From a virus (Duplodnaviria; Caudoviricetes): DNA of 55,617 nucleotides. A model generated the notes under the pieces. It saw only the letters and a program-made list of their open reading frames with translations, was not told the DNA's origin and searched no databases. Position 1 is the stretch's first letter. Every line of letters begins with the position of its first letter. The DNA lies in IMG/VR virus record IMGVR_UViG_3300024231_000789, positions 1-55,617 of that record; one strand, written 5' to 3'. Positions 12,452 to 44,020 of the stretch are shown piece after piece. The position numbers and the translations under genes are program-made.

Positions 12452-13147
12452 TTATATTTCACTTAATAAAACTACCTTGTCTATATCGAATAATAAATCT
12501 GATTGGTATCTTAATTTGTAAAGCATAATAGATGCTTCATCATTTGTATAGAATGTAGGTAAATTTACAGTTCTATTTGGTGCGGCAGTTACATGATATG
12601 GCCAAGAATTATTTTTTAGATAAGATATATCAAAACGTCCATTTGTATAAACTATTCTGCTATCAGTAAAGGTATCATGTATAACATCAGCTGCTTCCTG
12701 TAATATTTCATTACTAGGCATACTTCTTTTGTTACGTCTGTAAAGATAATTACTTATGGGCTTTACTCTAAATTTATATTTTTTATAAAACAAACTATCT
12801 CTGTACAGTACATTTTCATCAAACTTTAATAATTCCTGCCTTTGCTCTAAATTTTTAGGAGTACATATTTCCTTAATATAAATTTGATATTCTGGTCTAT
12901 CAATTAAGTAGTTAATAAGTTTTTCACTATTTGTATATACTCTAAATTCAAAAGATCCCAACGCATGCGCCAACTGTCTAACTTTTTTATATTGGTTATC
13001 AAATAAATTAGGCAATGTAAGACGTTCTACATTTCCACCAAAATCATAAAAAGATAATCCTCCCAATGTAATCTTGGCGACATATTTACCATAATATCCC
13101 TTGTGTGATAAACGCCACGCAGGATGAGATGTAATATTTTTATCCAT
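12452..13147 (-). CDS. Hypothetical protein
   Basis: Long ORF; start taken as the ATG at 13147, overlapping the clpA stop. Confidence 0.6.
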   Translation of the reverse strand: MDKNITSHPAWRLSHKGYYGKYVAKITLGGLSFYDFGGNVERLTLPNLFDNQYKKVRQLAHALGSFEFRVYTNSEKLINYLIDRPEYQIYIKEICTPKNLEQRQELLKFDENVLYRDSLFYKKYKFRVKPISNYLYRRNKRSMPSNEILQEAADVIHDTFTDSRIVYTNGRFDISYLKNNSWPYHVTAAPNRTVNLPTFYTNDEASIMLYKLRYQSDLLFDIDKVVLLSEI

Positions 13148-15425
13148 TTCTAATAAAAACTTCTTCCTTTGTTTTATCATAATCTACTCTAAGGGTGTAT
13201 GCTTTAGGATGATCCAGCATAAACCTTGCCATTGGTAGTTTTACTCTTTGATTAATTAAACGTGCTAATGGCCTTGCTCCCATAGTAGGGTCAAATCCTT
13301 TATCTTTTAACATCTCTTTTAAATTAGAAGTCCATTCAATTGCTACATGTCTATCTTGTACATATGTTTCAATCTCTTTTAAGAACTTATCAATAATGTT
13401 TGGCATCTCTTGTTCACTTAAAGAGTTAAACTTAACTATGCCATCAAGTCTGTTTCTAAATTCTGGAGCAAAGAAATTATTAATTGCACTTTCTACTGCT
13501 CTGTGATTAAATGTTTCTTCATTAAATCCAATACTTTTAATAGTTGCATCCTTTGCACCAAGGTTACTTGTCATAACTATGATAGCATTTTTAGCACTTA
13601 CAATTTTACCTGTACTTGATGTAATTGTTCCCTCATCTAACAAGGATAAAAGAACACTCATAAGATCTGGATGTGCTTTTTCTACTTCATCCATTAACAA
13701 GACACAATTTGGATTGTCCTCTAAATTACTAATAAGCAACCCGTCACCTGCCTTACCATCGCCATGTCCGACATAGCCTGGAGGAGAACCAATTAGTTTT
13801 GATACTGTATGACTTTCTTGATATTCTGCCATGTCATATCGAATAAGTTTCATCTTCATACTTTCTGACAGTCGTTTTGCAAGTTCTGTTTTACCTACAC
13901 CAGTAGGACCAGTAAATAGATAGCTTGCAACAGGCTTTTGTGGATCTTTAAGTCCTGCAAGTGAAACTGTGATAGCGTCTGTTACTGTGTCGATTGCTTC
14001 CTGTTGGCCAAAAACTTTAGACATTAAGTGTTGCTTAACATTATCATACTTTGTACTTGAGCTTTGATCATCTTGTTTACCTAAGTGTTCTATAGGAATA
14101 CCCACAAGGCTTGAAATCTCTTCTTTAATCATATCCTCAGTAATTAGACTTACCCGCATTTCTGCTGGCTGTATACGATTCTTAGCACACGCTCTATCAA
14201 TAAGATCAAATGCTTTATCAGGCAGTTGCTTATTAAAAATATACTGGTTACTTAACTCTACAGCTAGACCTGATACACCTTCTTCAAAGTCAACATCATG
14301 GAAACTGCCATAAGTTTCTAAAGTTGCATTAAGTATTTCCTTTGCCTCTTCAACACTAGGCTCATTTACTGTAACTTTTGTAAACCTTCGTGCTAACGCA
14401 CTTTCCTTTTCAATAATTTTCCTATATTCTTCGTCTGTTGTGGCACCAATAACTTTTAACTTACCACTACTTAATGCTGGCTTCAACATGTTACCTGCAT
14501 CCATACTACCACTACTACTACCTGCACCAATTAATGTATGTATTTCGTCAATAAAAAGAATAATGTCTGGTGTACTTTCCAATGCTTCTGCTAATTGTTT
14601 CATACGCTCTTCGAAGTCACCTCTGTATTTTGTACCTGCAACTAATTTGCCCATGTCCAATTCATAAACAGTATCTCCCACAATTGTATCTGGTACTGAT
14701 TCTTCTACTACTAGTTTCGCTAATCCTTGTACAATTGCAGTTTTTCCTACGCCACTAGGACCTGCAAGTATTACATTGCTTTTCTTCTTACGTGCAAGTG
14801 TTTGTACAACTTCTGCCAGCTCATCACGTCTACCAATTACATCGTCAAAATCCTGACTTTCAGCATTTAGATCTTTACAAAAAGACTTGATAACATCTAT
14901 ATTATTTTTTTGTACTTTAGTTTGTTGCTGTTGTTGGGGGATAGTATTAGGTCCATATGATCCACTAATATGTTGCTTATAAAAATCCGTTGCTGTATCT
15001 GTTTCAGACTCTGACATCCATTTAATAACTTTTGTTTTACTCAGTCCCATTTGATCACAAAAATTTGCACTTATAGATTTATCTTCACTTAAAATACTTA
15101 ACACCAGGTCTAGCTGATTAATTACACGTTTGCCCTGGAACAATGCTTGTGTAAGAGCTCTATTAAATACTCTCTCTAGCATTTGTGTTTTTCTAGGAGA
15201 TGGTTCCTCAATAGGATTAGTGACAAGCTCTTTGCAATCATGTTCTAGAAACTGCACTAGAGCCACCTGTAGTCCTTCATGATCCGCCGCAATTTCCAAA
15301 CACATATTTCTTATTTGCGGATCATCAAGCACCACTGCTGTCAAGTGCTCTATAGTCAAATAATCATGTTTAAATTTTTTAGCCAAATCTATAGCAGTAA
15401 GTAAAATTTGTTCAATATCAGTCAT
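13140..15425 (-). CDS. clpA: ATP-dependent Clp protease ATP-binding subunit ClpA
   Basis: Clp-N domain, two AAA+ modules (GPSGVGKT/IDEIH; GPTGVGKT/MDEVEKAH), GSPPGYVG, IGF ClpP-docking loop, no ClpB middle domain. Confidence 0.93.
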   Translation of the reverse strand: MTDIEQILLTAIDLAKKFKHDYLTIEHLTAVVLDDPQIRNMCLEIAADHEGLQVALVQFLEHDCKELVTNPIEEPSPRKTQMLERVFNRALTQALFQGKRVINQLDLVLSILSEDKSISANFCDQMGLSKTKVIKWMSESETDTATDFYKQHISGSYGPNTIPQQQQQTKVQKNNIDVIKSFCKDLNAESQDFDDVIGRRDELAEVVQTLARKKKSNVILAGPSGVGKTAIVQGLAKLVVEESVPDTIVGDTVYELDMGKLVAGTKYRGDFEERMKQLAEALESTPDIILFIDEIHTLIGAGSSSGSMDAGNMLKPALSSGKLKVIGATTDEEYRKIIEKESALARRFTKVTVNEPSVEEAKEILNATLETYGSFHDVDFEEGVSGLAVELSNQYIFNKQLPDKAFDLIDRACAKNRIQPAEMRVSLITEDMIKEEISSLVGIPIEHLGKQDDQSSSTKYDNVKQHLMSKVFGQQEAIDTVTDAITVSLAGLKDPQKPVASYLFTGPTGVGKTELAKRLSESMKMKLIRYDMAEYQESHTVSKLIGSPPGYVGHGDGKAGDGLLISNLEDNPNCVLLMDEVEKAHPDLMSVLLSLLDEGTITSSTGKIVSAKNAIIVMTSNLGAKDATIKSIGFNEETFNHRAVESAINNFFAPEFRNRLDGIVKFNSLSEQEMPNIIDKFLKEIETYVQDRHVAIEWTSNLKEMLKDKGFDPTMGARPLARLINQRVKLPMARFMLDHPKAYTLRVDYDKTKEEVFIRNG

Positions 15426-16104
15426 TTCTTAACCTTGTTATAAAACTTTCTAAGTTTTCTTCTGTCAGTATTGGTATGTTAACATCCACATGGATTACCA
15501 AATTACCACGTTTCTTTGTTTTTCTGTCATACAGTCCTTCATTAAGTACTGTAATTATATTTGTGTCTTTCATTATGTCCAATGGTATTTCAACTTCTAT
15601 GTAATTGCCTGTTGGTCCAAGTATAATAAAAGGACGTCTCTTTAATAAATTGATAAAGTCTAACTTTTTATATGTAGCTAGATGAAGTCCACGTCTTGTA
15701 TATTCTGGGTGGCTCAGTTCCTTTATGTTTATAATATATTTGTTCTTGCCGTCTCTGATATAAAATTTGTCATCTTTGAGGGCTCCTGGAGGTACACTTA
15801 CATTAATATATACTTCTTCCCCATCAATGTCAACAGATATAATTTCATTTAGTCCATGTACTTGTTGATGAATACTAAGGCTTAAATTAACCATTTTTGT
15901 ATCTGGAGCGTTTACAACAGGCACATGCTTTTTGTTCATTATAGCCTCGTATGCAGTACTAATTGATAGCCATTGCTTTATCGTACCGCCGCTGTCTGGA
16001 TGATATCTTTTTGCAAGTGTTTTATAGGCAGACTTTATATCCTGCATACTTGCATTGGGTCGAATTTTTAATATGTCCCAAGGGTTATTATTGTTCTTTT
16101 TCAT
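15418..16104 (-). CDS. DnaJ/CbpA-like J-domain protein
   Basis: IKSAYKTLAKRYHPD J-domain; degenerate DnaJ C-terminal domain (RGNLVIHVDV). Confidence 0.85.
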   Translation of the reverse strand: MKKNNNNPWDILKIRPNASMQDIKSAYKTLAKRYHPDSGGTIKQWLSISTAYEAIMNKKHVPVVNAPDTKMVNLSLSIHQQVHGLNEIISVDIDGEEVYINVSVPPGALKDDKFYIRDGKNKYIINIKELSHPEYTRRGLHLATYKKLDFINLLKRRPFIILGPTGNYIEVEIPLDIMKDTNIITVLNEGLYDRKTKKRGNLVIHVDVNIPILTEENLESFITRLRND

Positions 16105-16856: not shown

Positions 16857-17075
16857 TTACTTATACCTAAATACTATTCTTCCCTTTGTTAAATCATAGG
16901 GAGTCATTTCCAAATCTACTTTATCTCCTGAAAGGATTTTAATTTTATTTTTACGGATTTTACCGCTAACTATTCCTAATACAGTAACACCATTTTCTAG
17001 TTCTACTTTAAATGTAGCACCGGGCATACACTCTTTAATTATTCCTGTTACACTGATAGGTTCTTCTTTAGCCAT
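16857..17075 (-). CDS. infA: Translation initiation factor IF-1
   Basis: MAKEEPI...F.VELENG...[36 protein letters not shown], 72 aa; true start is the ATG at 17075. Confidence 0.95.
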
Positions 17076-17082
17076 ACTGTAT

Positions 17083-17823
17083 TTATATAAACTTTGGCAC
17101 AATAAAGTTTTCTGAAAACAGACTATGTGAAGACAAATTTGGATGCCAATCATCAAGAAATTCTAAATTATTTTCTTTACACCAATCAACTAAACATTCG
17201 TCAATATAGTCTACCCCATACATATCAAATGCTTTTTTACATTTGGTCCAACGTTCAATAGTTTTTTTTGCAGATGCGCCTGGCCACCATCTATCTGTAT
17301 CGTCAGCAAGAGCACCTGTCCATCCTCTAAACACAAAAACATTCACTCCTGCTGCTGATAACATACAAAGTTTACTTACTACTCTTGTTAGTAATATATC
17401 AGAGTCATGTGTCTGTCTTTGATTTGTCTTTAAATCGTAGTATTTGCCAGTCCATACTGTAGTTTTTTTACTACCAAAATAGCAATCATTTTTTTGCCAA
17501 CGCCCGTCAGGTCCGCCTCCAACAGGCATCATATCTTTTGGATCTAAAGTTATATTATTTCTAGATAAAATATCATCACTATATATACCACCGGTTCTAG
17601 TAATTCCAGTAAGTTGGTATGCTATTGTGGTATTTTTTAAATCATTTGTTAACATATATTGATCAAGATAATCAAGTAACTGTTGGTTCCCACCTCCATT
17701 AAATGAGAATTGTATATGTTTATCCGGACATAAGTGTTCTTTAAGTTTTTTTGCCCATGACGTAGGTTGTCCGTTTAAATATGGAGTTAGACTACATCCA
17801 AGTGTTATTAAAGTTTTGGTCAT
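17083..17823 (-). CDS. SGNH/GDSL-like hypothetical protein
   Basis: GCSLT, GGGN and C-terminal DDWHP motifs. Confidence 0.5.
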
Positions 17824-20473: not shown

Positions 20474-21196
20474 TTAAATTCCTAGTAATGGATCAAAGTG
20501 TCCAAAACCAAATCGTCTTTCATGGCAGAACCAACAATCTCCACAATGCTTAGTAAAGTCCATTGTAGTATGTTCACAACTACGAGTGATTGGAAATAAT
20601 TCTTCTCGCATATTATAGTAGTCGTATATTTCAGCTACTGCCTTTTTATTAATTAATGTAAACGGTCTGTTAAACCTAAATACACCTGGTTCAAATTCTA
20701 TCTCTTTAACAGGATAGCGATCAGCAAAATCTAAATCTCTTTCTGGTGGACGGTGCTCTACCATATCCTCATAGCCTTCTGGGGTATCTTCATATTCTTG
20801 AAGTTCTTCTACACTAGGATTGGCTGTTATGCCCATAAATTGTATAGTATGTTCATCTTCAAGTAATGGAAGATTCATTACCTCCATGTCTACATCGTAA
20901 TGTTCACCACCCCTATTATCATTCTTTACATGTTCATAATTACCTAAACTATAATGACGTTCAACTACTTCCATAACTTTTTGAGCAAACTCAAATTGAT
21001 AAGGTCTTCCTGCATGATTAGAACTTGTAATAATAAACTCAATATCCGGATTATATTCTGTTCTATATTTTGCAAGCATGAATAATAAAATTGCACTATC
21101 TGCTCCGCCTGATAACTTTACAAGTACCCTACGTTTTCCTTGAATATTAATTTCTACATCGCCTTGACTAGTAGGCACAAGCATGGATTGGTTCAT
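20474..21196 (-). CDS. QueC-like PP-loop ATP pyrophosphatase
   Basis: LSGGADS PP-loop; TRSC...HCGDCWFCHER Zn motif. Confidence 0.75.
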   Translation of the reverse strand: MNQSMLVPTSQGDVEINIQGKRRVLVKLSGGADSAILLFMLAKYRTEYNPDIEFIITSSNHAGRPYQFEFAQKVMEVVERHYSLGNYEHVKNDNRGGEHYDVDMEVMNLPLLEDEHTIQFMGITANPSVEELQEYEDTPEGYEDMVEHRPPERDLDFADRYPVKEIEFEPGVFRFNRPFTLINKKAVAEIYDYYNMREELFPITRSCEHTTMDFTKHCGDCWFCHERRFGFGHFDPLLGI

Positions 21197-23621: not shown

Positions 23622-23698
23622 TGGTGGGACCGGTAGGACTCGAACCTACGGTCAACCCGTTATGAGCGGGGGGCTTTAACCAACTAAGCTACAGTCCC
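23622..23698 (-). tRNA. tRNA with CAT anticodon, probably tRNA-Ile2 (lysidine, reads AUA) rather than Met
   Basis: GGGACTGTAGCTTAGTTGGTTAAAGC...CCCGCTCATAACGGG...GGTTCGAGTCC...CCCACCA; paired 1:72; encoded CCA. Confidence 0.88.
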
Positions 23699-23709
23699 TA
23701 TATTCTTGT

Positions 23710-24072
23710 TTACTCGTGTTCGCCGTTATTAGCACGGCCATTATATTTTCGTCCTGATTTTAATAGTGTGTTCAAGGACTCTGGATTGCGTTCCGCTTGA
23801 CGGAAAGTTACCACTGTAATTGTAATTGCTGAAATCAACAACACATGAAATGTTGCACTAATACCAAAGGCCATAAAACTACCTACCATTAATGCAAAAA
23901 TACCACTCCAAATAAAAAACAAACATTGAAAAATCATATGCCCTACCATAGGGTCTAAATTACGTAGTGGTGATTTTTCTACTGTCATTACACTGTCCCA
24001 CATTTCACGTGGTATTTTAATTAATGACGAGATAGTTGTTGCCCAACCAATTGGCTTAGGTGTATTATTCAT
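23710..24072 (-). CDS. Membrane protein
   Basis: WDSVMT..SPLRNL followed by 2-3 TM segments. Confidence 0.65.
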   Translation of the reverse strand: MNNTPKPIGWATTISSLIKIPREMWDSVMTVEKSPLRNLDPMVGHMIFQCLFFIWSGIFALMVGSFMAFGISATFHVLLISAITITVVTFRQAERNPESLNTLLKSGRKYNGRANNGEHE

Positions 24073-24101
24073 AATATTTTTACCTTTCTAAATTGTTATT
24101 T

Positions 24102-24188
24102 TGGTGCTCGCACCCGGACTCGAACCGGGACGCTATCACTAGCGAGAGATTTTAAGTCTCTTGTGTCTACCTATTCCACCATGCGAGC
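24102..24188 (-). tRNA. tRNA-Leu(TAA)
   Basis: AGAGA-CTTAAAA-TCTCT anticodon arm, long variable arm, GGTTCGAGTCC, CCA. Confidence 0.95.
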
Positions 24189-24192
24189 GAAT

Positions 24193-24269
24193 TGGCCTTC
24201 ACTATAGGATTCGAACCTATGACCTACTGCTTAGAAGGCAGTTGCTCTATCCAGCTGAGCTAAGTGAAG
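24193..24269 (-). tRNA. tRNA-Arg(TCT)
   Basis: ACTGC-CTTCTAA-GCAGT anticodon arm, GGTTCGAATCC, CCA. Confidence 0.95.
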
Positions 24270-28349: not shown

Positions 28350-28434
28350 TTTGAGTTCCTTCTTCTTCGTCGTTCATGTTGTCTTCGTAGCAACAAACTG
28401 CTCGTTGCCTCTAATTATTATTATTTTATCGAAA

Positions 28435-28693
28435 ACTGGCACTTCTGTTACCAGGTAGTACCCACCCTTGCATACCTAAATTAGGCTGCTAATGCCATTG
28501 CTGGCGCATAATTGTTATTTGCAATTATAAAATTTAACCTATTACGCTGTTACCCGGTTAACTCCACTTCACTTTCACACCTGTCGATCCTAGTTCAGCC
28601 CCATCATAAAAACATTCAGCAAATGTGCTTATGGTGGAGCTGCTCGGTACTGCCCCGAGGTCCAGTATGTGTCCACGTTACTTCAACGTTAAC
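28435..28693 (-). ncRNA. ssrA: Two-piece (circularly permuted) tmRNA, alphaproteobacterial type
   Basis: Acceptor piece ends CTCGG-GGCAGTA-CCGAG-CAGCTCC-ACCA (CCA ends at 28632); intervening hairpin; coding piece starts GGGGCTG at 28602 (G3:U70); tag ORF 28522..28481 ANNNYAPAMALAA*; outer ends approximate. Confidence 0.93.
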
Positions 28694-28698
28694 ATCAT

Positions 28699-28729
28699 TA
28701 TTTATAACATATATACATTTATGTGTCAA
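28699..28729 (-). promoter_or_regulatory. Composite sigma70 / late promoter of the tmRNA
   Basis: TTGACA-17 nt-TATAAA, with the -10 element also reading TATAAATA. Confidence 0.7.
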
Positions 28730-28734
28730 GAACT

Positions 28735-28935
28735 TTATTTAGAAGGAGTTAATTTTATATATGACTCATCTAATTCAATAGGAATACAATCTATCCCTTG
28801 GCCTTTATTTTTTACCAATATGTGTGCTTTGCTAAGTTCTTTACCACAGTCTTCTACTGTTAAATATGTTCCTACATGATAATATTGCATATCACCAGCA
28901 GGTGTTATTGCTAACCAAATTAATATCCACAACAT
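28735..28935 (-). CDS. Small protein with two Cys
   Basis: Hydrophobic N-terminus; GGGGAG RBS. Confidence 0.55.
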   Translation of the reverse strand: MLWILIWLAITPAGDMQYYHVGTYLTVEDCGKELSKAHILVKNKGQGIDCIPIELDESYIKLTPSK

Positions 28936-30662: not shown

Positions 30663-30663
30663 A

Positions 30664-33847: not shown

Positions 33848-33867
33848 TTTATTTCTCCATTTGTTCG

Positions 33868-34114: not shown

Positions 34115-34123
34115 AAATTAATT

Positions 34124-34552
34124 TTACTTGATTTCGATTGCTCGAGGCTGCTTCTCTTCTGGTACGATACGCTCTAGTTCAATATAAAGCATTCCGTTTT
34201 CCATTTGCGCACCATTTACTACCACATCATCAGATAGTGTCCATACTCTACGGAATTTACGTTGTGCAATACCTTTGTGAAGCCATTTGGTTGATTCTGT
34301 ATCAATTTCTTCTGGGCTGTGCGCAATTGTAAGTTGACCGTTTTCTGTTGTAATGTCTAGGTCTTCTTTACGAACACCTGCTAGTGCAATTTCAATTTGG
34401 AAGTTGTTGCCTTCTTGGCGGATATTATAAGGCGGATAACCTGTGCTTGCCGCATTACCGTCTACATAACGGAACATATCTTCAAAAATTTTATCAAAAC
34501 CTACAGCATATGGTGTAAGTTTATTCAGGTCGAGTGTTGTTAGTCTTGTCAT
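34124..34552 (-). CDS. Small heat-shock protein (Hsp20, IbpA-like)
   Basis: YPPYNI, IALAG, HKGIAQRKF, ENGML.IEL.R.VPEE..PR.IEI. Confidence 0.93.
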   Translation of the reverse strand: MTRLTTLDLNKLTPYAVGFDKIFEDMFRYVDGNAASTGYPPYNIRQEGNNFQIEIALAGVRKEDLDITTENGQLTIAHSPEEIDTESTKWLHKGIAQRKFRRVWTLSDDVVVNGAQMENGMLYIELERIVPEEKQPRAIEIK

Positions 34553-34603: not shown

Positions 34604-34614
34604 GTTGTTAGTGA

Positions 34615-35397
34615 CTAAAAGAACCTTTTTACCTTTACATTCTTAGGTATAGGAGTGCCGTCACGTTTTGCACTCTTAGGCCCAAAATCAAATACATCGT
34701 CGATAGGAAAAGTTCTTATATCTTCACTTTTTATATCCAAGTACGGCTTTGTATCTAAGTTTGTTTCGTCTTCGTGGGCTACAAGATATTCTAGATCTCT
34801 TGTTTGGTACCATGCCAGACTTTCATCTGGATATCCAACCCCCACGACAATAATTGGCTCATAGCGAGGAATATCTTCATACCCTAGCCATTTTCTCCAT
34901 TCATCTGGATTAGCATCACCATTATGCATAGTATTTTGACTATATCCAGTGCGTAGTCCCATCATATTTGCTGCTAGAACCATTTGTCCTGAGCTAATGC
35001 CTACTGATTTTTGTTGGGTCTTTCCAAATTCTTCATCAAATAATTCATTAATGCCAGGACCAGATTCGTCTGCTGCCCAAATATCTTTATGTAAATCTTC
35101 CGGTGGTGTTTTACCGTAGATAAAGATACATGGTGCATGAACTTGTGTGTTGTGCATTGCACTATTTGTTTTTTTCCAATGATACCCCCATGTAAATCTC
35201 GCTGCATGTTCTTTAAGCATATCTTCGTTTGTAATTACTGTGAGATTAAAATCAACCTCATTTTGTTTGCTCGGTGCGTTGACTGCTATTTCTGTTAAAA
35301 AATCAATAGTCTCTTGGTCCACTTTTTTGTCTGACCAGTTGCGTTGTGCTTTGCGACTTTGGTGCATAGCTTTTAATATAAAATCTTTATCTATCAT
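34615..35397 (-). CDS. Nitroreductase family protein
   Basis: RKAQRNW, APSKQN, GISSG, AANMMGLRTG, GVGYP; start taken as the ATG at 35397. Confidence 0.75.
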   Translation of the reverse strand: MIDKDFILKAMHQSRKAQRNWSDKKVDQETIDFLTEIAVNAPSKQNEVDFNLTVITNEDMLKEHAARFTWGYHWKKTNSAMHNTQVHAPCIFIYGKTPPEDLHKDIWAADESGPGINELFDEEFGKTQQKSVGISSGQMVLAANMMGLRTGYSQNTMHNGDANPDEWRKWLGYEDIPRYEPIIVVGVGYPDESLAWYQTRDLEYLVAHEDETNLDTKPYLDIKSEDIRTFPIDDVFDFGPKSAKRDGTPIPKNVKVKRFF

Positions 35398-35413
35398 ACT
35401 TCTATTTATCTTA

Positions 35414-36595
35414 TTAATTGCCAATCGTTGATGATTCGTAAACTGGATTATGTGTTTGTGTACATCTTACAAACGTTGTACATTTGCTAAGTTGTTTCAG
35501 CTTCAATGCACCTGCATATGTGCATGTTGAGCGAATGCCTCCTAGGATATTCTGTATTGTGTTTTCAACTTCTCCTCGATAAGGCACTAACACTGTACGA
35601 CCCTCACTTGAACGATAGTTTTTTAATCCACCAAAATGCTTATCGTTTGCACTTTCACTACTCATGCCGTAGAACTGCACATAACGTTTTTCTTTTACTT
35701 TACGTTTATGGTTACTTAAATGATCACCAACTTCGTATTCTAATTCATCTGTTTCGTAATATCTTTTAATTACTTCACCACCGCCTTCATTGTGCCCAGC
35801 AAGCATACCACCAAGCATAACAAAATCTGCGCCGGCTGCAAAGGCTTTAGCGACATCTCCAGGGCAAGTACACCCACCGTCAGCAATAATGTGACCACCA
35901 AGTCCGTGTGCTGCATCAGCGCATTCGATGACCGCAGATAATTGCGGATATCCCACACCAGTTTGAATCCTAGTAGTGCAAACAGACCCGGGACCAATGC
36001 CCACTTTAATAATATCAGCTCCTGCAAGAATCAATTCCTCCGTCATTTCTCCGGTAACTACGTTACCTGCTATAATTACCAGTTCTGGAAACTGGTCACG
36101 TACTGTACGTACTCTTGCTGCAAAATGATCACTATAACCATTTGCAATATCCATACATACGTATTTTAAATTACCTCCAGCAGCTTTCTGAACATTAATT
36201 AACTTATAAAAGTCAGTATCACTTGTACCAATACTCATAGCAACATTGGCTGTACGCCCTGGATTTGCACTATTAAAATATTCTACAAGTTGCTCTGCTG
36301 AGTATGTTTTTACAAGACATGTAAAAATCTGTTGGCTGGCCAAAGTGTCTGCCATTTCAAATGTACCAACACCATCCATATTACTTGCCATAATAGGAAT
36401 ACCAGTGTAATGTGGTTCTTTGTATGGGCCAGCAGGATATCCTTGTGGCAATACATCAGTTGCTACAGCTGGTTCGTAATTGCGAAAGGTAAATTTACGT
36501 TCAAGACGTACTTGCTTTCGTGAACCTAGTGTACTACGTTTAGGACGTATTAATACATCCTTATAGTCTAGTTTTACATCTTGATCTATTCTCAT
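35414..36595 (-). CDS. guaC: GMP reductase
   Basis: [47 protein letters not shown]; start at the ATG at 36595. Confidence 0.93.
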
Positions 36596-37131
36596 TTTAT
36601 TGTCAATCCTAATTTTTGTAACGACTGTTGTACACAAATAGCTTGTGCTTTACAATCTTCAAGTGCATTGTGTGCATCAAATTTTAATTCTTTTCTTGGG
36701 TCACTGGGCATAATTTGAAATAATGTTCTGCTATCTCTAATTTTCCAGAAGGGCCAAGGATAGTGATGATCATATTGCCTAAACATATTCTCTAATATAA
36801 CAATATCAAATGCCGGCCCTTGTGCCCAGATACAGTCTACATTGACACACCATTTATTAAGTGCATCTAGAACTTCCTTAACAGGTGTTCTATCTAAATC
36901 TCCTAATGCTTCTTCACGTATGTGTTTAGGCTGACGAGCCCACCAATCAAGAGTACTATCATCAGTAGTGCGGCCATTTGCCAACTGTTCATCGACATCA
37001 AACCTATGGTAGAAAAAGTCTCTACTTGGTGTACTGACATTTGGATCAAATTTACATCCTCCTATAGTCAAAGCGACTGTGTCTGGAGTGTGCCCTAAGG
37101 TCTCCAAATCAATCATTGCATGTAGTGTCAT
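36592..37131 (-). CDS. DEDDh 3'-5' exonuclease
   Basis: [26 protein letters not shown]. Confidence 0.85.
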
Positions 37132-37548
37132 TTATTTCCTCTGTTCACAAACTCTATTTCTAAGATCTGTACTACTAAATCTATGATTACGACTGTTGAA
37201 ATATAAATCTATTCCTAACTTACGACATTCATTTTTACCAGTAAAGTCTTTTCTTTTATATTCTTCACCAAGTATTCTAACATCAATATCATACATTGTC
37301 AAGATATCAATTAGGTCTGCTTCAGTATTATATGGAATAATTTCGTCAACATATTTTACTGCTTTAAGCTGAGTGTATCTCTCTACAATTGTCTGTATAG
37401 GAGGATTTTTGCTTGTGGGACGATCCAAACTAGGATCCATTTGCAAGGCACAAATTAAATAATCGCATTGTGATTTGGCTTCACGCAACATTTGTATATG
37501 TCCTGCGTGTAATAAATCAAATGCAGATGCAGTAAATCCCACTGTCAT
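37132..37548 (-). CDS. Cytidylyltransferase (TagD-like)
   Basis: FDLLHAGH, YVDEIIPY, RFSST. Confidence 0.88.
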   Translation of the reverse strand: MTVGFTASAFDLLHAGHIQMLREAKSQCDYLICALQMDPSLDRPTSKNPPIQTIVERYTQLKAVKYVDEIIPYNTEADLIDILTMYDIDVRILGEEYKRKDFTGKNECRKLGIDLYFNSRNHRFSSTDLRNRVCEQRK

Positions 37549-37778
37549 TTTTTAGAGAACTTTACTACATTATGAATAAATGTTACTTTATTCTTTTTAT
37601 AATGATCTGCCAACTTTTTACAGGATGCCTTTTCCTTCATTGCCATAACAACTAACTCATCTGTGAGTTTATCATTATCACATGGATCATATGTATTACG
37701 ATTAGTGTTAGCAAAAATAGTCTTACCTATTTTTTCATCACTCGTAAATGCTGTCCAAGTTGGTCGAAACTTTTTCAT
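37545..37778 (-). CDS. Hypothetical protein
   Basis: 77 aa; ATGA coupling at both ends. Confidence 0.55.
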   Translation of the reverse strand: MKKFRPTWTAFTSDEKIGKTIFANTNRNTYDPCDNDKLTDELVVMAMKEKASCKKLADHYKKNKVTFIHNVVKFSKK

Positions 37779-38077
37779 TCAGATTCCTCTATTACTACGT
37801 CTAAAGGATATCCTGCATGTCTTGCTTCTGAAACAGTCTCTACACATTTTTGCTCTGCTACTTCGTAACTATATGTACCAGCTACTGCACGACCAGTTTC
37901 ATGTATATCTATCATAAGTTGCTCTGCATCCTCTGGAGTTCTTTTAAAGATTGCAATTAAAATCTGTATTACAAAATCCATAGGTGTGCTATCATCATTA
38001 AGCATAACGACATGATACTTATTGGGTGTCTTTAACTTAATTGCTTCAACGGATTCTTGTTTCTGTATTTGGGTCAT
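37775..38077 (-). CDS. clpS: Clp adaptor ClpS
   Basis: YHVVMLNDDSTPMDFV, IHETGRAVAG.Y.YEVAE.K, GYPL. Confidence 0.93.
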   Translation of the reverse strand: MTQIQKQESVEAIKLKTPNKYHVVMLNDDSTPMDFVIQILIAIFKRTPEDAEQLMIDIHETGRAVAGTYSYEVAEQKCVETVSEARHAGYPLDVVIEESE

Positions 38078-38307
38078 CTATTATCTTCTTTTGCAATGCG
38101 GCGTTTATGTCTAGCGCGGCTTGCCGCTTCTGCCTGCAGACGTTTTTCTGTTTTACTCACAAAATGCTTCTTATTGCGAATCTCTTGCATAATTCCATCA
38201 TTCATAAGTTTCTTTTTTAATTTTCTCATGGCTTGGTCTACATTATTATCACGTACTTTGATAAAAAACCCTCCATGTTCATTTCTTAAATGTTTATTGT
38301 TTGCCAT
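38074..38307 (-). CDS. rpsU: Ribosomal protein bS21
   Basis: VRDNNVDQAMRKLKKKL...GIMQEIR...HF.SK.EKR. Confidence 0.9.
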   Translation of the reverse strand: MANNKHLRNEHGGFFIKVRDNNVDQAMRKLKKKLMNDGIMQEIRNKKHFVSKTEKRLQAEAASRARHKRRIAKEDNR

Positions 38308-38315
38308 TTCTCTCT

Positions 38316-39503
38316 CTATTTAATTAAATGTGGCATCTTGCCATTAATAATTGTTTCTTTATTTACTAAAATTTTTTTAATACCTTTTTCAGATAAGTCT
38401 GAAGATTCATATTGTAATTCTAATAATGCTTGGTCGAGAATCTTTCTTAATCCTCTTGCACCTAGCTTCTGCTCAATTGATATGTCTGCTACAGCATTCA
38501 AAGATGCTTTGTCAAATTCTATATTTAAACTGTCCATACCAAACAGCTCTTTATATTGTTGTATGATATTATTCTTTGGTTCGGTTAATATCCTTACAAG
38601 GTCATTTGAATCCAACTCATTTAATATATTTATACTAGGCAATCTACCTACAAATTCTGGTATCAATCCATACTTAACTAAGTCAATAGTTTGTAAATGA
38701 TCTCTCCAATCTAAGTCTTTATCTTTTATTTCAAGCTCTGTAAAACCAATACGGTTTTTTCCCACTCTTTGCATCACAACATCATCTAGTCCAATAAATG
38801 CGCCCCCAACTATGAAAAGAACTTCACTTGTATCTATATCTACTTTTTCTGGCAACTGACCTGGTTTATTAGGAACAGTTATAACAGTGCCTTCCATAAG
38901 TTTTAAAAGACTTTGTTGCACACCCTCACCACTGACGTCTCTACTTAAACTGACATAGTCATTACGTTTGGCTTTTTTATCAATCTCATCTACATATATT
39001 ATTCCTGTGTGTGCTTTATCTAAATCATAGTCAGCTTCTTGTAATAGTCTATGTACTAATACTTCTGCATCGTCACCTGCATAACCACTTTCAGTAATAG
39101 TAGTAGCATCCGTAATCACAAAAGGAACATTTAAATGATCTGCCAATGTTTGTGCAATTAGCGTTTTTCCTGTGCCTGTTGGGCCTATCATTAAAACATT
39201 ACTCTTGCCTAATTTTACATCACTTGTATAATTTAGTCTCTTATAATGATTAGATACTGCTACACTAATAGACTTTTTTGTCCTCTCCTGACTTATTACA
39301 TAATCGTTTAATACACTGTGTAAATTTTTAGGATTAATTAAACTAGGAAGAGGCTTTTCTTTATAACTCTTATCATCCTGTACTATTTCACTACAAAGCA
39401 CGACACAACTATCACAGATATGAGTGTTATCATTACCTGCTAATAGCTTTTTGACTTTTGTGCTATCTTTGCCGCAAAAATTACAGATGGGAGTTTTAAT
39501 CAT
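38316..39503 (-). CDS. clpX: ATP-dependent Clp protease ATP-binding subunit ClpX
   Basis: C4 zinc-binding domain (CNFC...CDSC), GPTGTGKT, DEIDK, RDVSGEGVQQ, IGF loop, GARGLR. Confidence 0.95.
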   Translation of the reverse strand: MIKTPICNFCGKDSTKVKKLLAGNDNTHICDSCVVLCSEIVQDDKSYKEKPLPSLINPKNLHSVLNDYVISQERTKKSISVAVSNHYKRLNYTSDVKLGKSNVLMIGPTGTGKTLIAQTLADHLNVPFVITDATTITESGYAGDDAEVLVHRLLQEADYDLDKAHTGIIYVDEIDKKAKRNDYVSLSRDVSGEGVQQSLLKLMEGTVITVPNKPGQLPEKVDIDTSEVLFIVGGAFIGLDDVVMQRVGKNRIGFTELEIKDKDLDWRDHLQTIDLVKYGLIPEFVGRLPSINILNELDSNDLVRILTEPKNNIIQQYKELFGMDSLNIEFDKASLNAVADISIEQKLGARGLRKILDQALLELQYESSDLSEKGIKKILVNKETIINGKMPHLIK

Positions 39504-39939
39504 TTACTAGTCCTGGCATGGTCTCTATTTGAAGATACTGGTCTAACTGAACAATGCTAGAGAATATTAAGTATTTACTCTTGGCATTTATAAGCCTTAT
39601 TAAGTCTCTTTTTTTCTGCTTTAGGCTAACAAAAATTACAATATGGCTTTCATCTACTGATTTTAATAAGGCGGATGTGATATCTTCCACCTTGCAGGTA
39701 TCAAGATCAACTACCATAAATTCACAACTAGTACTCACGTGAAATAACCAAGCAAGGTTTCCACTTGTTGTATTTTTTTGCACATTAAATACGATGCTTG
39801 ACATAATATACTTTTCAAATAGTAATTTAATACCATCTATAAGGTTATCATCTGTACTCACAATTAATGCATTAACGCCATTTTCTGAAAGAAAAAGGTC
39901 GGGAGGAGTTACTGTATAACTCGAATTATCATTTTTCAT
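39496..39939 (-). CDS. Hypothetical protein
   Basis: VTPPD motif; coupled to its neighbours. Confidence 0.6.
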   Translation of the reverse strand: MKNDNSSYTVTPPDLFLSENGVNALIVSTDDNLIDGIKLLFEKYIMSSIVFNVQKNTTSGNLAWLFHVSTSCEFMVVDLDTCKVEDITSALLKSVDESHIVIFVSLKQKKRDLIRLINAKSKYLIFSSIVQLDQYLQIETMPGLVND

Positions 39940-41726
39940 TACACTGCTTTTTTGTTAGGGTTTTGTTCTATCAACTCTTTAATTATTCTGTATTCTGGAT
40001 TACCTGGTACGTATGATATTCCTTTATACATTATCTCATCAGTATACAGATTTTCTGTGGTTTCGTCAAGAATTTGTTTTGGTGTTTTCCAAATTCCTTC
40101 CTCTTTCATAGTTCTGGCTACTTGCTCTAGTACTCCAGGATCAGCTTTCTCTAACATACGTTCCAGCACTTTATCGTCCTGTTGATCTACTTCTCCGTTG
40201 TCCGTTGGAAGGTCTTGATGCGACCAAGATAAAGTTTCAGTATTATCTTTATCTGTTGCAGGTGCTGTTTTAACCTGCGGTCTTTTGCGTGATGGGTTTT
40301 GTTCTATCAAGCTGATACCTGAAATTACTAGTATTACTGCTAATGGATCAAACACAAGAACTAGGATAATAATTACCCATCTCACTGCTGACTCTAGCAT
40401 ATCTTTATTAGCTTCACCATAAACAAGTTCAGCTATATATTTTACAGGTCCAACTTCTGCTTCTAGTTTTCTGTAGTCTGCTTCTAGCTCATATTTTTTC
40501 TCTGTAAGTTTTTCTATTTGTTCGTTTGAAAGATTAATTTTGCTTAGTTGAGCGTTTACTATATCTTCAATAGATTTATCTGAACCAACTGTAATTTGCT
40601 GTCTTAATCTTTCAATAAGATCTTGGCTTGCTTGTATTTGATTTTCAGCACTCAATCTAATACGTGCGATTTCTTCCCTTGCTGTATTGATTGCAGGAGA
40701 CTCTGTGGCTCTCACATTATCAATAGTACTTAACACCTGAAGTTCACGTTGTTTAAGTGCAGGTATCTGAATCTCACGTATATCTTTAACTACACTTGCT
40801 AGTCTAGTACGTTCAAGATTAACTACGCTTGTTGCATCTTTACGTATAGTTGCAACTTGTGCATTTAGGTCGTTAACAATAATTTTTTGTTGTTCTATCC
40901 AAGTATTAGCAGAACGCCTTGTATTAGGTCCAGCAGCACCGTCAGGATTAGCACCTATTGTACTTTGTGCTTGCTTAATTTGCTCACGTTCGCCACTAGC
41001 AATCTGTCCTTCTACTTTTGTAATCGTTGCATTAATCGTTGCAATTTGTGCAACGATTGTATCTGCACTACTTGCATCTACAACAAGACTAGATATTTGT
41101 GTTTCGTATTCTTTTGCACTTGTTTCTAAACGTATAATTTCATCTTTAATATTTGTTAACTGGTCTTCATATGGTGATGTACGACTTGCATCGTCCAATC
41201 TCACATCTGAAATAATTTTATTCTGTTCATTAATTGCAGGTTGTATTCTTGAATATGTTGAATCTATACGCTCTTGTTCAAGATCTATTTGCTGTTGAAT
41301 AGATGCATTACCATCACCTTGTTGTGATTCTGCTTTATCAATTTTTGCTTCAGCTCTAGCAATAATATCTGTATTGCGAACTAATTCTTTTTCTATTCTT
41401 TCTAACTGTGCTACATTTTCACCTGCAGCACTTGTTTGTTCAATATGTGCTTTACTAAGGAAACCAAAAATACCCATACTTGTAATAAACATTAACAAGA
41501 TAGTTGCACTTGTTAAGTAAATTTTAACAAACCATTTTGCATTTTTCCAATTAAGATGCAACCATACTGCGGTAGTTAACTTACCTATTTCTAGTACTGA
41601 ACCCATAATAACAATAGGAATCATAGCTGCGGCAAAAATTGCCACAAGTCCTACAATACTATAATAGGCCGCTACTGCACTAATGCATAGGGCAACAAAT
41701 ATTGTCCAATAGCCATAAATTCTCAT
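39939..41726 (-). CDS. Membrane protein with a long coiled coil and a peptidoglycan-binding-like motif
   Basis: Three N-terminal TMs (…GIFGFLSKAH), coiled coil, EVGPVKYIA, TM with FDPLAV; central Q..IG..PDG..GP.T. Confidence 0.6.
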   Translation of the reverse strand: MRIYGYWTIFVALCISAVAAYYSIVGLVAIFAAAMIPIVIMGSVLEIGKLTTAVWLHLNWKNAKWFVKIYLTSATILLMFITSMGIFGFLSKAHIEQTSAAGENVAQLERIEKELVRNTDIIARAEAKIDKAESQQGDGNASIQQQIDLEQERIDSTYSRIQPAINEQNKIISDVRLDDASRTSPYEDQLTNIKDEIIRLETSAKEYETQISSLVVDASSADTIVAQIATINATITKVEGQIASGEREQIKQAQSTIGANPDGAAGPNTRRSANTWIEQQKIIVNDLNAQVATIRKDATSVVNLERTRLASVVKDIREIQIPALKQRELQVLSTIDNVRATESPAINTAREEIARIRLSAENQIQASQDLIERLRQQITVGSDKSIEDIVNAQLSKINLSNEQIEKLTEKKYELEADYRKLEAEVGPVKYIAELVYGEANKDMLESAVRWVIIILVLVFDPLAVILVISGISLIEQNPSRKRPQVKTAPATDKDNTETLSWSHQDLPTDNGEVDQQDDKVLERMLEKADPGVLEQVARTMKEEGIWKTPKQILDETTENLYTDEIMYKGISYVPGNPEYRIIKELIEQNPNKKAV

Positions 41727-42079
41727 TATCTTACTCCACTGTAATCTTCAGCAAGGCCAAGGTCAATTAAAGTATGATTTATGTTTATAAGTTTATTCTT
41801 CTCATCTTTAATGTAGACAATGCCCATTGTGCGACCGTATTTACCCCTTCTGTTATGCAGGGTTTCTACAATAAAGTCTTTAGGTAATAATTCAATCAGC
41901 TTAGACTTGACGATCAAACCTTGTTCCCTAACATTAATATCCTTGGACTTTGGATCTGGAGTAGCTATACCAAATAACTTAATTCGCTGACGAATACAGA
42001 TATCAAAGCCCAGATCTATGTCTGCATCTATGGTATCACCCTCAATTACTCTAATTAATTTTGCTTTATATGTGTACAT
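41726..42079 (-). CDS. Thermonuclease (SNase)-like protein
   Basis: RVIEGDTIDADIDLGF, LFGIATPD, GKYGR. Confidence 0.7.
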   Translation of the reverse strand: MYTYKAKLIRVIEGDTIDADIDLGFDICIRQRIKLFGIATPDPKSKDINVREQGLIVKSKLIELLPKDFIVETLHNRRGKYGRTMGIVYIKDEKNKLININHTLIDLGLAEDYSGVR

Positions 42080-42142
42080 ACAATAAAATCCTTACAAAAA
42101 AACTATGCGTCCGTATGGTATTTATTGGTTTTAAAGTTGTAC

Positions 42143-42847
42143 TTAACGTGTATTATTATCTAACCACTGTTTGGCTACACGATTTTGTGGTGGTGTTGAT
42201 AAGAAAGCACGAATATTCTTATCTACCTGTCTGAACTGTTCTGCTCTATCAGGATCCTCAAGTCCTCCGCTATTATCTAAAATATGGAAATTAGCGGCTC
42301 CAAATACTTGTTGAAACTTCATAAGGTTACTCTGCACTGTATTCCACATCTTGGATACAATCTCTGCTGGTAGTCTTCTAGCTCTTTTTTGATTACGTTG
42401 TTGTGCTACTTCCAAGTCAGTGTTAACAAATAACATCATTGTATCGTATCCCAATGCCTGCAATTGCTGTTTTAATTTTGAAACAGATCCAACATCCTTG
42501 CCTGTACCATCAATAATTAAGCCTAAACGACCACCAATATAACCAGTAGAGCCATCAGTGCCGCCTCGTCTTTTATCTGTTAGACTTTTTGCTTTAGCTC
42601 TTACTTCTTGACCTTTATCGCTATAAACTTCATCAGGATTGCTCAAGTCTACATTATTCTGTCTTGCAAGAAATTCATAAACTTCGTCACTGTTAACAGT
42701 TTTTAATCCTGTGCCTGATAAAACTTTGTTAGCCACAAAACTTTTACCACTACCAGGGCCACCTGATAAGAATACTGCCTTAAAAATATGTGGATCATTA
42801 GGACCTTCTTCAATAGGTCTAGCTGATAAAATGTCATGTACCTTCAT
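42143..42847 (-). CDS. P-loop kinase (zeta toxin/AAA_33-like)
   Basis: GGPGSGKS, VNSD, IIDGTG, QRNQKRAR lid. Confidence 0.75.
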   Translation of the reverse strand: MKVHDILSARPIEEGPNDPHIFKAVFLSGGPGSGKSFVANKVLSGTGLKTVNSDEVYEFLARQNNVDLSNPDEVYSDKGQEVRAKAKSLTDKRRGGTDGSTGYIGGRLGLIIDGTGKDVGSVSKLKQQLQALGYDTMMLFVNTDLEVAQQRNQKRARRLPAEIVSKMWNTVQSNLMKFQQVFGAANFHILDNSGGLEDPDRAEQFRQVDKNIRAFLSTPPQNRVAKQWLDNNTR

Positions 42848-42851
42848 ACGT

Positions 42852-43409
42852 TTATTTAGCTATTGATTTAAATTTGTCTACGATTCCGTTGTAATCATAT
42901 AAATCTGATGGATTGGGTATTCTTAACTTCAGTAATATTCTATCTTCATTCTTTGCAAAAGGTACACAATGCATTTCCCTTGTGTTCAGTATTGCGGCGT
43001 CATAGTAAATAGGATCTGGATAGTCTATAAATTGTACTGGTGTATCAAAACCCTTTAATACAAAATTCATACTTACCTTAACAACTTTATCAACATGCCA
43101 TCTTAGTTCTTCACCCTGGTATAATTTTAAAAACTGTGGGTATAGATAGCTTACATCTAGCTCAAGGATACTTGATATTTTTTCAGCAAGCCTCAAAGCC
43201 TCGCCTCCTTGAACAACTGAGACTTGCCAGTCATGATTATCAAACCATTTTGAAGCGGTCTCATGGCTATCACTAACCAATCTGTCATAGCTACCCGGAC
43301 CAAATACATTACTGTAGTCAGAATTTTCTGCTTCCTGTAATATTAAATCGAAATCAAAGTCCTTGACAAAACGGTCAATATTATAGACATATTTTTCTTT
43401 ATCAATCAC
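42852..43409 (-). CDS. 2OG-Fe(II) oxygenase-like protein
   Basis: WHVD...MNF...LNTREMHCV...R. Confidence 0.6.
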
Positions 43410-44020
43410 TTTTTAGTGACTACCTTGTCTGCTAATCCCCAATCAACTGCATCTTGTGCTGATAAGAATGTATCAAACTTCATTGTCTCAAACATATCTT
43501 CATACGTTTTACCTGCCGTATTGTGCTTAACATATGTTTCAGTAAGTTGGCGATTAAGTTTTTTACTTTCCTCGAAACTACGGATTACATCCGTCATTTC
43601 TAACTCTTGTACATGCACACTACCTGATGTGCCACGTGTGCCTGAACTTACACGATGGATCATTGTGCGACTATTTGGCAACACAAAACGCTTGCCTGGT
43701 TCACCTGCCATTGCCAAAAAGCTACCCATTGAACATGCCTGTCCCATCACGATTGTTGATACTGGAGCATTAATAAACTGCATCGTATCATAAATTGCTA
43801 GTCCAGATGTAACACCACCGCCAGGGCTGTTGATATAAAAATTAATATCTTCATCACTATTTTGTGATTCTAGGAAAAGCATTTGTGCTACGACTAAGTT
43901 TGAACTCTGATCGTTTACTTCTCCATTTAGCATTACAATTCTGTCTTTAAGTAGACGACTGTAAATGTCATATGAGCGTTCGCCACGCCCTGTTTGTTCT
44001 ACTACCATAGGTACTAGCAT
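43406..44020 (-). CDS. clpP: ATP-dependent Clp protease proteolytic subunit
   Basis: [25 protein letters not shown] (catalytic Ser), MIH, D.FLSA. Confidence 0.95.

Follow-up and report, generated by a model that had tools for sequence, protein, structure and literature searches.

A tmRNA and Clp proteolytic machines side by side in a marine T4-like jumbo phage lineage with an altered ClpX

We analysed the 55,617-nucleotide IMG/VR virus record IMGVR_UViG_3300024231_000789 (Duplodnaviria; Caudoviricetes), hereafter the window, which encodes a transfer-messenger RNA (tmRNA, the product of ssrA), the unfoldases ClpX and ClpA, the peptidase ClpP, the adaptor ClpS, a J-domain protein and the small heat-shock protein Hsp20. 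An earlier note, made from the sequence alone, had read these genes as a near-complete viral tag-and-degrade pathway. We find instead that the three loops with which E. coli ClpX reads the ssrA tag are all changed in the phage ClpX throughout its clade. This clade-wide, probably re-specified ClpX, and a conserved neighbour recognisable by its predicted fold only, are what distinguish the lineage. In our reading the tmRNA and the Clp machines are probably parallel modules of one toolkit for long infection in a marine T4-like jumbo phage, and not a closed tag-and-degrade pathway.

The gene-level observations of the note hold. Rfam, ARAGORN, Pfam and NCBIfam recover every gene that it named, including the J-protein overlapping clpA, at the positions given for them; ARAGORN reads a tag, ANNNYAPAMALAA, with the LAA end; the translations contain an IGF loop in both ATPases, GYAG in ClpX and MIHRVSSG in ClpP; and a six-frame search of the window finds neither SmpB nor SspB. 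The genes appear undamaged, and dozens of relatives retain them as one block.

Results

All three ssrA-reading loops of ClpX are changed across the clade

The window's ClpX passes the NCBIfam equivalog cut-offs (NF003745, 491.2 vs 359; TIGR00382, 452.3 vs 370.75) and carries zf-C4_ClpX (E 1.1e-13) and AAA_2 domains. Relatives are encoded at 58 IMG/VR loci with 45-66% identity; the cysteines C7, C10, C30 and C33 are invariant in alignment A1, and the ClpP-docking loop, RIGF in the window, keeps IGF in 58/58. Alignment to solved ClpX chains revealed changes in three other loops: GYAG replaces GYVG in the pore-1 loop, SLSRDV replaces SITRDV in the pore-2 loop, with Ser at the position of E. coli Thr199, and the GGRKHPxQE stretch of the RKH loop is replaced by a loop three residues shorter that lacks RKH. 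The triple change (GYAG, xLSRDV and a short non-RKH loop) is common to the window and to all 48 full-length clade relatives. In contrast, cellular ClpX from species-representative genomes of many phyla has GYVG, Thr and GGRKHP in 80/80 cases, and GYVG with a GRK[H/N] loop is also retained in seven more distant IMG/VR phages, in phage G, in Atu_ph07 and in Sinorhizobium phage Phosso (PV764938.1). The best cellular matches are 45-50% identical and scattered over many phyla. In a phylogeny computed with FastTree only (139 rows; the partial loci L044, L045 and L056 were dropped from both tree and motif table), the GYAG proteins are monophyletic (49 tips, SH-like support 100, stem 0.51), and the tree shows no specific bacterial sister group and so no donor.

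What the three loops do is known from E. coli. Papers are cited here by PubMed Central (PMC) accession, and statements drawn from them hold for the sections consulted. Residues critical for ssrA binding and specificity in E. coli ClpX are Y153, V154, T199, V202, R228 and H230; Y153A, V154F and R228A each raise the Michaelis constant 50-fold or more and T199S raises it ~4-fold, and human ClpX, which has Leu at 199 and 230, degrades ssrA substrates only once the pore-2 and RKH loops of E. coli have been transferred into it (PMC7652416). By analogy, the phage ClpX would be, if anything, a disfavoured reader of the ssrA tag, and most likely selects a different set of substrates, because it is altered at the positions through which E. 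coli ClpX contacts the tag. In the literature searched, we found no paper naming GYAG together with ClpX. Separately, we observed that the seven more distant phage loci (L049-L051, L053, L055, L057 and L058) share the gene order clpX-bS21-hsp20-clpS and combine a canonical GYVG/RKH ClpX with absence of the open reading frame (ORF) described next, making them a natural comparison for the rebuilt ClpX.

A conserved ORF upstream of clpX has a predicted flavodoxin-like fold

An ORF of 147 amino acids (aa) lies directly upstream of clpX in all 48 clade loci with room for it and is absent at all seven GYVG-type clpX loci, an association that counts as one evolutionary event and not as independent replication. 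The protein matches no Pfam or NCBIfam model, Pfam Response_reg included. AlphaFold2, given a 24-sequence alignment, predicts a five-strand, five-helix alpha/beta domain (predicted local distance difference test, 80.7; predicted template modelling score, 0.75) preceded by an N-terminal tail that is disordered yet conserved to the point of invariance. The best Foldseek matches are receiver domains of response regulators (E 4.5e-4), and VIA aligned 116 residues with such a domain at Z 11.2 and a root-mean-square deviation of 3.0; deoxyribosyltransferase-like folds tie with them (Z 10.8), so that only the flavodoxin-like fold class is established. A protein atlas gave matches to OKR_DC_1_N (0.89) and to a cluster in which 22% of the proteins carry Response_reg (0.86), both of which are leads only. 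Prediction of a complex with ClpX, run without controls, scored 0.00 and 0.00 and counts neither for nor against binding. RssB is one precedent for a response regulator that acts as a ClpX adaptor. Caulobacter CpdR, also a response regulator, is the other and serves as a ClpXP adaptor (PMC11519897). By analogy with this pair, and given the predicted fold, a role of the 147-aa protein as a CpdR/RssB-like ClpX adaptor is a lead worth testing.

The tmRNA gene is maintained as a tmRNA

RF01849 (alpha_tmRNA) matches positions 28434-28748 with 132.4 bits (gathering threshold 50; E 5.6e-36) and RF04321 (tmRNA_permuted) positions 28481-28693 with 125.3 bits (gathering threshold 47); ARAGORN calls a permuted tmRNA at 28390-28725. 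The tag ORF stops with TAA and ends at 28481. The mature ends are expected at 28632 (CCA 3' end) and 28602 (5' GGGG of the coding piece), and the acceptor stem GGGGCUG/CAGCUCC, followed by an encoded ACCA, contains the G3:U70 pair. Directly upstream, a TTGACA, a 17-nt spacer and TATAAA(TA) form a promoter-like element, judged from its letters, that ends 6 nt ahead of the start of the permuted-model match. Part of it (28699-28706) can alternatively be read as a T4-late-type TATAAATA box, the T4 late-promoter consensus. This box is not enriched in the window (12 matches vs 10.2 expected); in seven cases it precedes a gene start or the tmRNA core by 6-25 nt (Table 1), which is anecdotal. Sigma-70 promoter-like sites do not exceed shuffles either (70 vs 72.3), under a scan rule that demands T at position 6 of the -10 hexamer and therefore leaves the tmRNA element unlisted, and terminator-like sites number 16 vs 8.2 in shuffles. 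Contig breaks of RNA libraries within the gene do not coincide with the expected processing sites.

Among 97 loci (L001-L097), ARAGORN reported 24 tmRNA hits on 18 distinct contigs, as told by contig name. The tags of the relatives are ANDNYSPEMALAA, ANNNYEPEMAMAA, ANANYEPEMALAA, ANDNYQPEMALAA, ANYEPEMAIAA, ANDNIAPDFAIAA and AEDNFAIAA, and every tag, that of the window included, terminates in [L/M/I]AA. The 7-bp acceptor stem, ACCA and G3:U70 are present in 15 of 17 distinct tmRNA sequences (the intervening segments of the other two are longer than the stem-search window permitted), and the stem is preserved through six different compensating sequence pairs. Because stem, G3:U70 and CCA are kept through compensatory changes and the tags keep their [L/M/I]AA end, the sequences indicate that this RNA is under selection as a tmRNA.

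ClpA, ClpS, ClpP and the J-protein keep their working motifs

ClpA is colinear with residues 7-722 of E. coli ClpA (E 1.5e-164), including the N-domain and without a middle domain; its best NCBIfam match (TIGR02639, 753.9) is below the cut-off of 993.15. Relatives, 39-72% identical, are encoded at 36 IMG/VR loci. The docking loop is SIGF where E. coli has SIGL, and the relatives have IGF in 33/35 copies, with VGF and LGF once each. The D1 KYR loop, on which E. coli ClpA depends to engage ssrA tags (PMC8666677), is KYR in the window, and KYR or a conservative variant occurs in all 36 copies. We also observed a Gly/Asp-rich insert of four residues after the D2 GYVG (GHGDGKAGDG), which E. coli ClpA lacks and 34 of 35 phage relatives share.

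ClpS scores 98.7 bits with PF02617 (cut-off 23), with all NCBIfam equivalog scores below their cut-offs. Its best solved relative is 3dnj, and the NDDSTPM and His residues of the pocket align with those of solved ClpS chains; the relatives keep the ND[D/E/N]xTP motif, and the pocket His is present in 56/56 copies. In E. coli, ClpS inhibits the recognition and degradation of ssrA-tagged proteins by ClpAP (PMC8666677).

The catalytic residues of ClpP (Ser in ACSMGSF, His in MIHR, Asp in KFDTF) occupy the triad positions of solved ClpP chains, the N-terminus is mature-like without a propeptide, and the protein scores above the cut-off of subfamily NF001368 (253.4 vs 249) and below that of equivalog TIGR00493 (230.4 vs 308.6). 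The SMG motif of the active-site Ser is kept in 41/41 copies. About ten extra residues follow the catalytic His, in what is presumably the handle region; of 41 relatives, 14 are of this type (MIHRVSSG plus insertion) and 27 have canonical MIHQP[S/K]GG. We considered and rejected a head-maturation protease: the corresponding model gives 88.9 bits against a cut-off of 120, true ClpP is the best match (253.4), and the relatives carry gp21. As a side observation, a second, weaker ClpP paralogue (~213-229 aa, 93-112 bits) is encoded far from the main clpP in three of the five long relatives described below and in Phosso (Table 1); it might form a mixed ClpP ring.

The J-protein is class-B-like, with matches to PF00226 (E 1.9e-10) and PF01556 (E 3.7e-09) and a YHPD motif, and HPD is kept in 25/25 aligned copies of the relatives.

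Phage-encoded partners were not found in the records searched

SmpB (PF01668) was found in 0 of 24 phage records, namely the window, 20 IMG/VR records (three of them distant megaphages, 97-100% complete), phage G, Atu_ph07 and Phosso, and control searches in well-known genomes matched as expected. SspB (PF04386) was found in 0 of 15 records (the window and 14 relatives), and neither Hsp70 nor Leu/Phe-tRNA protein transferase in the 14 relatives. The wider search for smpB and sspB that the earlier note had proposed thus came back empty; absence of SmpB from the full clade genome is likely, not proven. Since no phage SmpB, Hsp70 or transferase was found, the phage parts would depend on host SmpB, on DnaK and on some source of N-degrons.

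The window is a fragment of a marine T4-like jumbo phage

The window spans the full length of a linear IMG/VR record with a CheckV completeness of 15%, a guanine-plus-cytosine content of 31-39% and densely packed genes, nearly all on the minus strand. A Pfam scan of 70 window ORFs detected no structural phage gene. Many relatives' contigs repeat the window's spacing of ~23 kb between clpX and clpA. The sizes of five long relatives (124-222 kb, 34-60% complete) imply a full length of ~365 kb; ClpP and ClpS match in all five and an alpha tmRNA in three, and three encode the T4 gp23 major capsid protein on the Clp-bearing records, with the T4 gp21 prohead protease adjoining it. The window is therefore a fragment of a marine T4-like jumbo phage lineage of roughly 365 kb, since syntenic relatives of the Clp block carry gp23 and gp21 on the same contigs, and the IMG/VR record is viral, not cellular. 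By contrast, the top ClpX tblastn match, 'Acinetobacter phage MD-2021a' (L181, CAKLQH020000005.1), has tig-clpP-clpX beside a TonB-dependent receptor and looks bacterial; matches to it are best left out of any count of Clp genes in phages.

We assessed conservation of the block by tblastn of 82 window proteins against 97 loci, with a second count on the ClpX loci. Among 51 clade loci, ClpS was found at 50, bS21 at 48, the 147-aa ORF at 48, ClpP at 41 and Hsp20 at 40, together with a 595-aa membrane/coiled-coil ORF at 43 and an SNase-like ORF at 42. In most relatives, bS21 is separated from clpX by one additional small gene and from clpS by another. Throughout a large uncultured clade, the modules stay together in syntenic order.

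Near-identical sequence (at least 58% of sampled words) is present in 20 of the 24 sequencing runs listed, from 20 studies; all 20 come from seawater or other marine or aquatic sources, and six carry an RNA label. In four of four RNA-library runs, contigs span 28001-44100 completely (all 30 bins) with uneven depth; in run X3, contig depth rises from a baseline of 42-61 to 871-1036 at 32.8-33.9 kb. As a side observation, the small conserved ORFs there (33241-33423; 33423-33662, DUF1127; 33659-33904, minus strand) stand 10- to 20-fold above their neighbours in X3, and depth over 32800-34000 is raised in the other three runs too. This may reflect high expression, although contig depth is unsuited to ranking genes.

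Clues to the host are weak. The tmRNA gave core matches only in a BLAST search of 401 genomes from the class of a Rhodobacteraceae metagenome-assembled genome (best 73% over ~90 nt), and no match in five named alphaproteobacterial genomes. Its alpha type is a weak clue, because Melnitz, a phage of a non-alphaproteobacterial host, has one as well (PMC9004378).

Other genes of the window

All features named by the earlier note are on the minus strand (Table 1). The J-protein stop overlaps the clpA start by 8 nt, the stop of the 147-aa ORF the clpX start by 8 nt, and the bS21 stop the clpS start by 4 nt, which suggests translational coupling. A bS21 homologue between clpX and clpS, an IF-1 homologue near clpA, which probably begins further downstream than the listed TTG, and three tRNAs extend the list in the note. 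Huge phages and marine phages are already known to encode bS21 and IF-1. Further Pfam matches in the window are PhoH, SpeD, a peroxiredoxin, UvdE, four radical-SAM proteins, an IMPDH/GMP-reductase-like enzyme, an Rv2179c-like exoribonuclease, an SNase-like nuclease, a class-3 lipase and a cyanophage OMP-like domain. The radical-SAM, PP-loop/QueC-like and 2-oxoglutarate (2OG)-Fe(II)-like ORFs suggest chemistry of nucleotide or RNA modification.

Table 1. Positions of the features discussed; window positions unless a relative is named.
Feature	Position	Strand	Basis
ClpA: N-domain, D1 (KYR), D2 (GYVG + 4-residue insert), IGF loop	13140..15425	-	Pfam/NCBIfam, alignment
J-domain protein: HPD and DnaJ C-terminal domain, without G/F region or zinc finger	15418..16104	-	Pfam
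IF-1 homologue	16857..17156	-	PF01176 E 1.2e-21, residues 35-97
tRNA-Met(cat), tRNA-Leu(taa), tRNA-Arg(tct)	23622..24269	-	ARAGORN and Rfam
Two-piece permuted alpha-type tmRNA	28434..28748	-	Rfam, ARAGORN
Promoter-like element by the tmRNA core	28699..28729	-	read from sequence
Terminator-like hairpin followed by T run, 3' end of tmRNA gene	28436..28454	-	consensus scan only
Hsp20, IbpA-like small heat-shock protein	34124..34552	-	PF00011 E 3.4e-17; NF008013 113.6 bits, below cut-off
ClpS N-degron adaptor	37775..38077	-	PF02617 E 1.6e-28
bS21 homologue	38074..38307	-	PF01165 E 8.7e-13; TIGR00030 44.4 bits vs cut-off 28.95
ClpX: C4 zinc finger, Walker motifs, IGF, GYAG pore-1	38316..39503	-	Pfam, NCBIfam, alignment
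147-aa ORF, predicted CheY-like (flavodoxin-like) fold	39496..39939	-	AlphaFold2, Foldseek, VIA
ClpP peptidase	43406..44020	-	PF00574 E 6.4e-65
Radical-SAM proteins (four)	2045-4361, 25188-26102 (+), 48140-49240		Pfam
PP-loop/QueC-like ORF	20474-21196
2OG-Fe(II)-like ORF	26345-26947
TATAAATA matches upstream of gene starts or tmRNA core	1788, 18840, 25175 (+), 26914 (+), 30317, 48125, 28699
Second ClpP paralogues (relatives)	G001:C1:31442-31909, G002:C1:93196-93642, G004:C1:172803-173312; Phosso 115158-115679

Comparison with known phages and bacterial systems

The earlier note had set the novelty of the system too high, since Atu_ph07 (PMC6102473), Sinorhizobium phage AP-J-162 (PMC11242549) and Phosso hold the same gene sets. 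Atu_ph07 encodes ClpX, ClpA, ClpB, ClpP and ClpS, with a DnaJ (gp293) adjoining ClpA (gp292) as the J-protein does in the window, and ClpA is conserved across Rak2-like phages (PMC6102473). We confirmed ClpS and ClpP in its record, and ClpX and ClpA by tblastn. Unlike the window, Atu_ph07 has a ClpB, a soil alphaproteobacterial host, a 490-kb genome, a ClpX with GYVG and a GRKN loop, and no alpha-type tmRNA that we could find in its record; its proteins are only ~39-46% identical to those of the window. Phosso shares ClpX, ClpA, ClpS, ClpP (two copies) and an alpha tmRNA (108 bits), and SmpB was not found in it either; it differs in its soil host, in its canonical GYVG ClpX with a GRKN loop and in the scattering of the Clp and tmRNA genes over a ~470-kb genome, those of the window lying within 31 kb. 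AP-J-162, from a soil host, has a tmRNA, six Clp ORFs, Hsp20 and DnaJ, which the sections consulted do not present as a pathway (PMC11242549).

Closer in habitat, Methylophilales phage Melnitz and pelagimyophages are marine and T4-like, with an alpha-type permuted ssrA behind a promoter (PMC9004378), and the Melnitz records are the sole DNA match to the window tmRNA in the phage collection (4 records, 75% identity over 28% of the query). Melnitz differs in its ~141-kb genome and in a glutamine riboswitch on its ssrA, of which the window has no Rfam match at gathering thresholds; Clp genes are not mentioned in the sections consulted (PMC9004378). Moraphages, compared by description only, are likewise aquatic, large and T4-related, share virus orthologous groups that include ClpA, PhoH and T4-type structural genes, and in some genomes carry DnaJ and DnaK; they differ in genome sizes of up to 307 kb and predicted Bacteroidota hosts, and a tmRNA goes unmentioned in the sections consulted (PMC12619734). 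More widely, Buchholz et al. 2022 (PMC9004378) counted tmRNAs in 402 phage genomes out of 18,146, huge phages encode tmRNAs, SmpB, IF1 and S21 (Al-Shayeb et al. 2020, PMC7162821), phage ClpP, ClpS, ClpA and ClpX have been discussed (Iyer et al. 2021, PMC7824862), and phage G has a tmRNA, ClpX and ClpP (PMC12484599). With bacterial trans-translation, ClpXP/SspB and ClpS-ClpAP (E. coli, Caulobacter), the window has in common G3:U70, an AA-ending tag, IGF loops, the ClpP triad and the ClpS pocket. In contrast to these systems, SmpB and SspB were not found, ClpX lacks GYVG, Thr199 and RKH, ClpP has the handle insertion and ClpA the 4-residue insert after GYVG. The gene set is thus of a kind already known, and the novelty is modest: known modules within ~31 kb (13140-44020) in a marine T4-like clade. 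In the literature searched we found neither a tmRNA tag linked to phage Clp machines nor a loop-altered ClpX.

Discussion

If the tmRNA and the Clp machines are parallel modules, as we think probable, the tmRNA would be transcribed from the promoter-like element directly upstream and processed into two pieces. Charged with alanine by virtue of G3:U70, it would work with host SmpB (no phage SmpB having been found), EF-Tu and ribosomes, free stalled ribosomes and append a tag ending in LAA. ClpS-ClpA-ClpP would break down N-degron substrates, the J-protein would recruit host DnaK and Hsp20 would hold unfolded proteins. Reading of the tag would more probably fall to proteases of the host, ClpXP among them, or to phage ClpA under conditions where ClpS runs short.

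The near-complete viral pathway of the earlier note, in which the phage tmRNA tags and phage ClpXP and ClpAP degrade, for instance in recovery from RNA-cleaving defences (amino-acid recycling, which we add, being another conceivable purpose), is in our judgement unlikely. It would account for the presence of all parts within ~31 kb, syntenic in relatives, for tags with the [L/M/I]AA end of a classical ClpX/ClpA degron, for the IGF loops of both unfoldases and for the D1 KYR loop of phage ClpA, which engages ssrA in E. coli (PMC8666677), and the Melnitz authors proposed a tagging role for their phage tmRNA (PMC9004378). Against this, the ClpX loops changed clade-wide are all three that are critical for tag reading in E. 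coli (PMC7652416), ClpS antagonises ClpAP on ssrA substrates (PMC8666677), and neither SmpB (0/24) nor SspB (0/15) was found in the phage records searched. The GYAG from which the note drew a possible change of specificity is one of three coordinated changes in ssrA loops, and the link from tag to phage ClpX is, if anything, disfavoured. Less probable still is that ClpP and the Clp ATPases act mainly, as chaperones or translocases, in building virions or replicating DNA, without connection to the tmRNA; this would surprise us. A possible contribution of phage ClpA and ClpX to virion assembly has been suggested by Iyer et al. (PMC7824862), and replication control by the Atu_ph07 authors (PMC6102473), but the relatives own a dedicated gp21 prohead protease beside gp23, the ClpP scores as true ClpP and not as head-maturation ClpP, the block sits amid translation, chaperone and metabolic genes and not structural ones, and the presence of ClpS points to N-degron proteolysis. 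That the contig is cellular, or its genes decaying passengers without function, we regard as very improbable: although the window itself holds no structural phage gene and the nearest cellular ClpX is 45-50% identical, the contigs of its syntenic relatives also encode the T4 capsid protein and prohead protease, all frames are open, catalytic and docking motifs are conserved over relatives 53-72% divergent, the tmRNA stems covary, and the ClpX clade is monophyletic on a long stem without a specific bacterial sister.

Several points weigh against our preference for parallel modules. The mechanism comes wholly from homology, and the effect on tag binding of V154A, T199S and RKH loss combined is extrapolated from E. 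coli mutants, among which T199S alone has a ~4-fold effect and V154A is not quoted in the sections consulted (PMC7652416). Recognition of the tag could be regained through another mode of binding or through an adaptor that has escaped notice, and the conserved AA end indicates selection for an AA-reading protease, which could still be the phage's own. Among the 150 best 50%-cluster representatives, drawn from 1.84 billion proteins, 101 lack the RKH string and 49 have it, GYVG occurs in 131 and GYAG in four (one being the window's own cluster); RKH-less ClpX-like proteins are hence common in metagenomes and loop variation is not unique to the clade. All own-clade records are fragments (15-60% complete), so SmpB could lie in the unsampled parts, and the RNA-library data are contigs, which prove neither transcription nor its level.

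A bolder form of the parallel-modules reading is that the clade split ribosome rescue from its own ClpXP: a phage-encoded CheY-fold partner, a viral counterpart of CpdR and RssB, would steer ClpX to chosen host or phage proteins, and tagged products would be left to host proteases or to ClpAP. We hold this as a doubtful but worthwhile possibility.

To our knowledge, phage Clp proteases, tmRNAs, bS21 and IF-1 are familiar gene content of giant phages, and we know of none with a demonstrated role. If the phage ClpX reads the tag normally, the present case would be an ordinary further example of this known gene set. The clade, abundant enough to show up in 20 marine studies, offers a natural experiment, in which ClpX keeps its motor, zinc finger and docking loop and swaps all three ssrA-reading loops while a tmRNA with an AA-ending tag is kept. 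At stake is whether large phages specifically remodel host proteolysis or merely add capacity to it.

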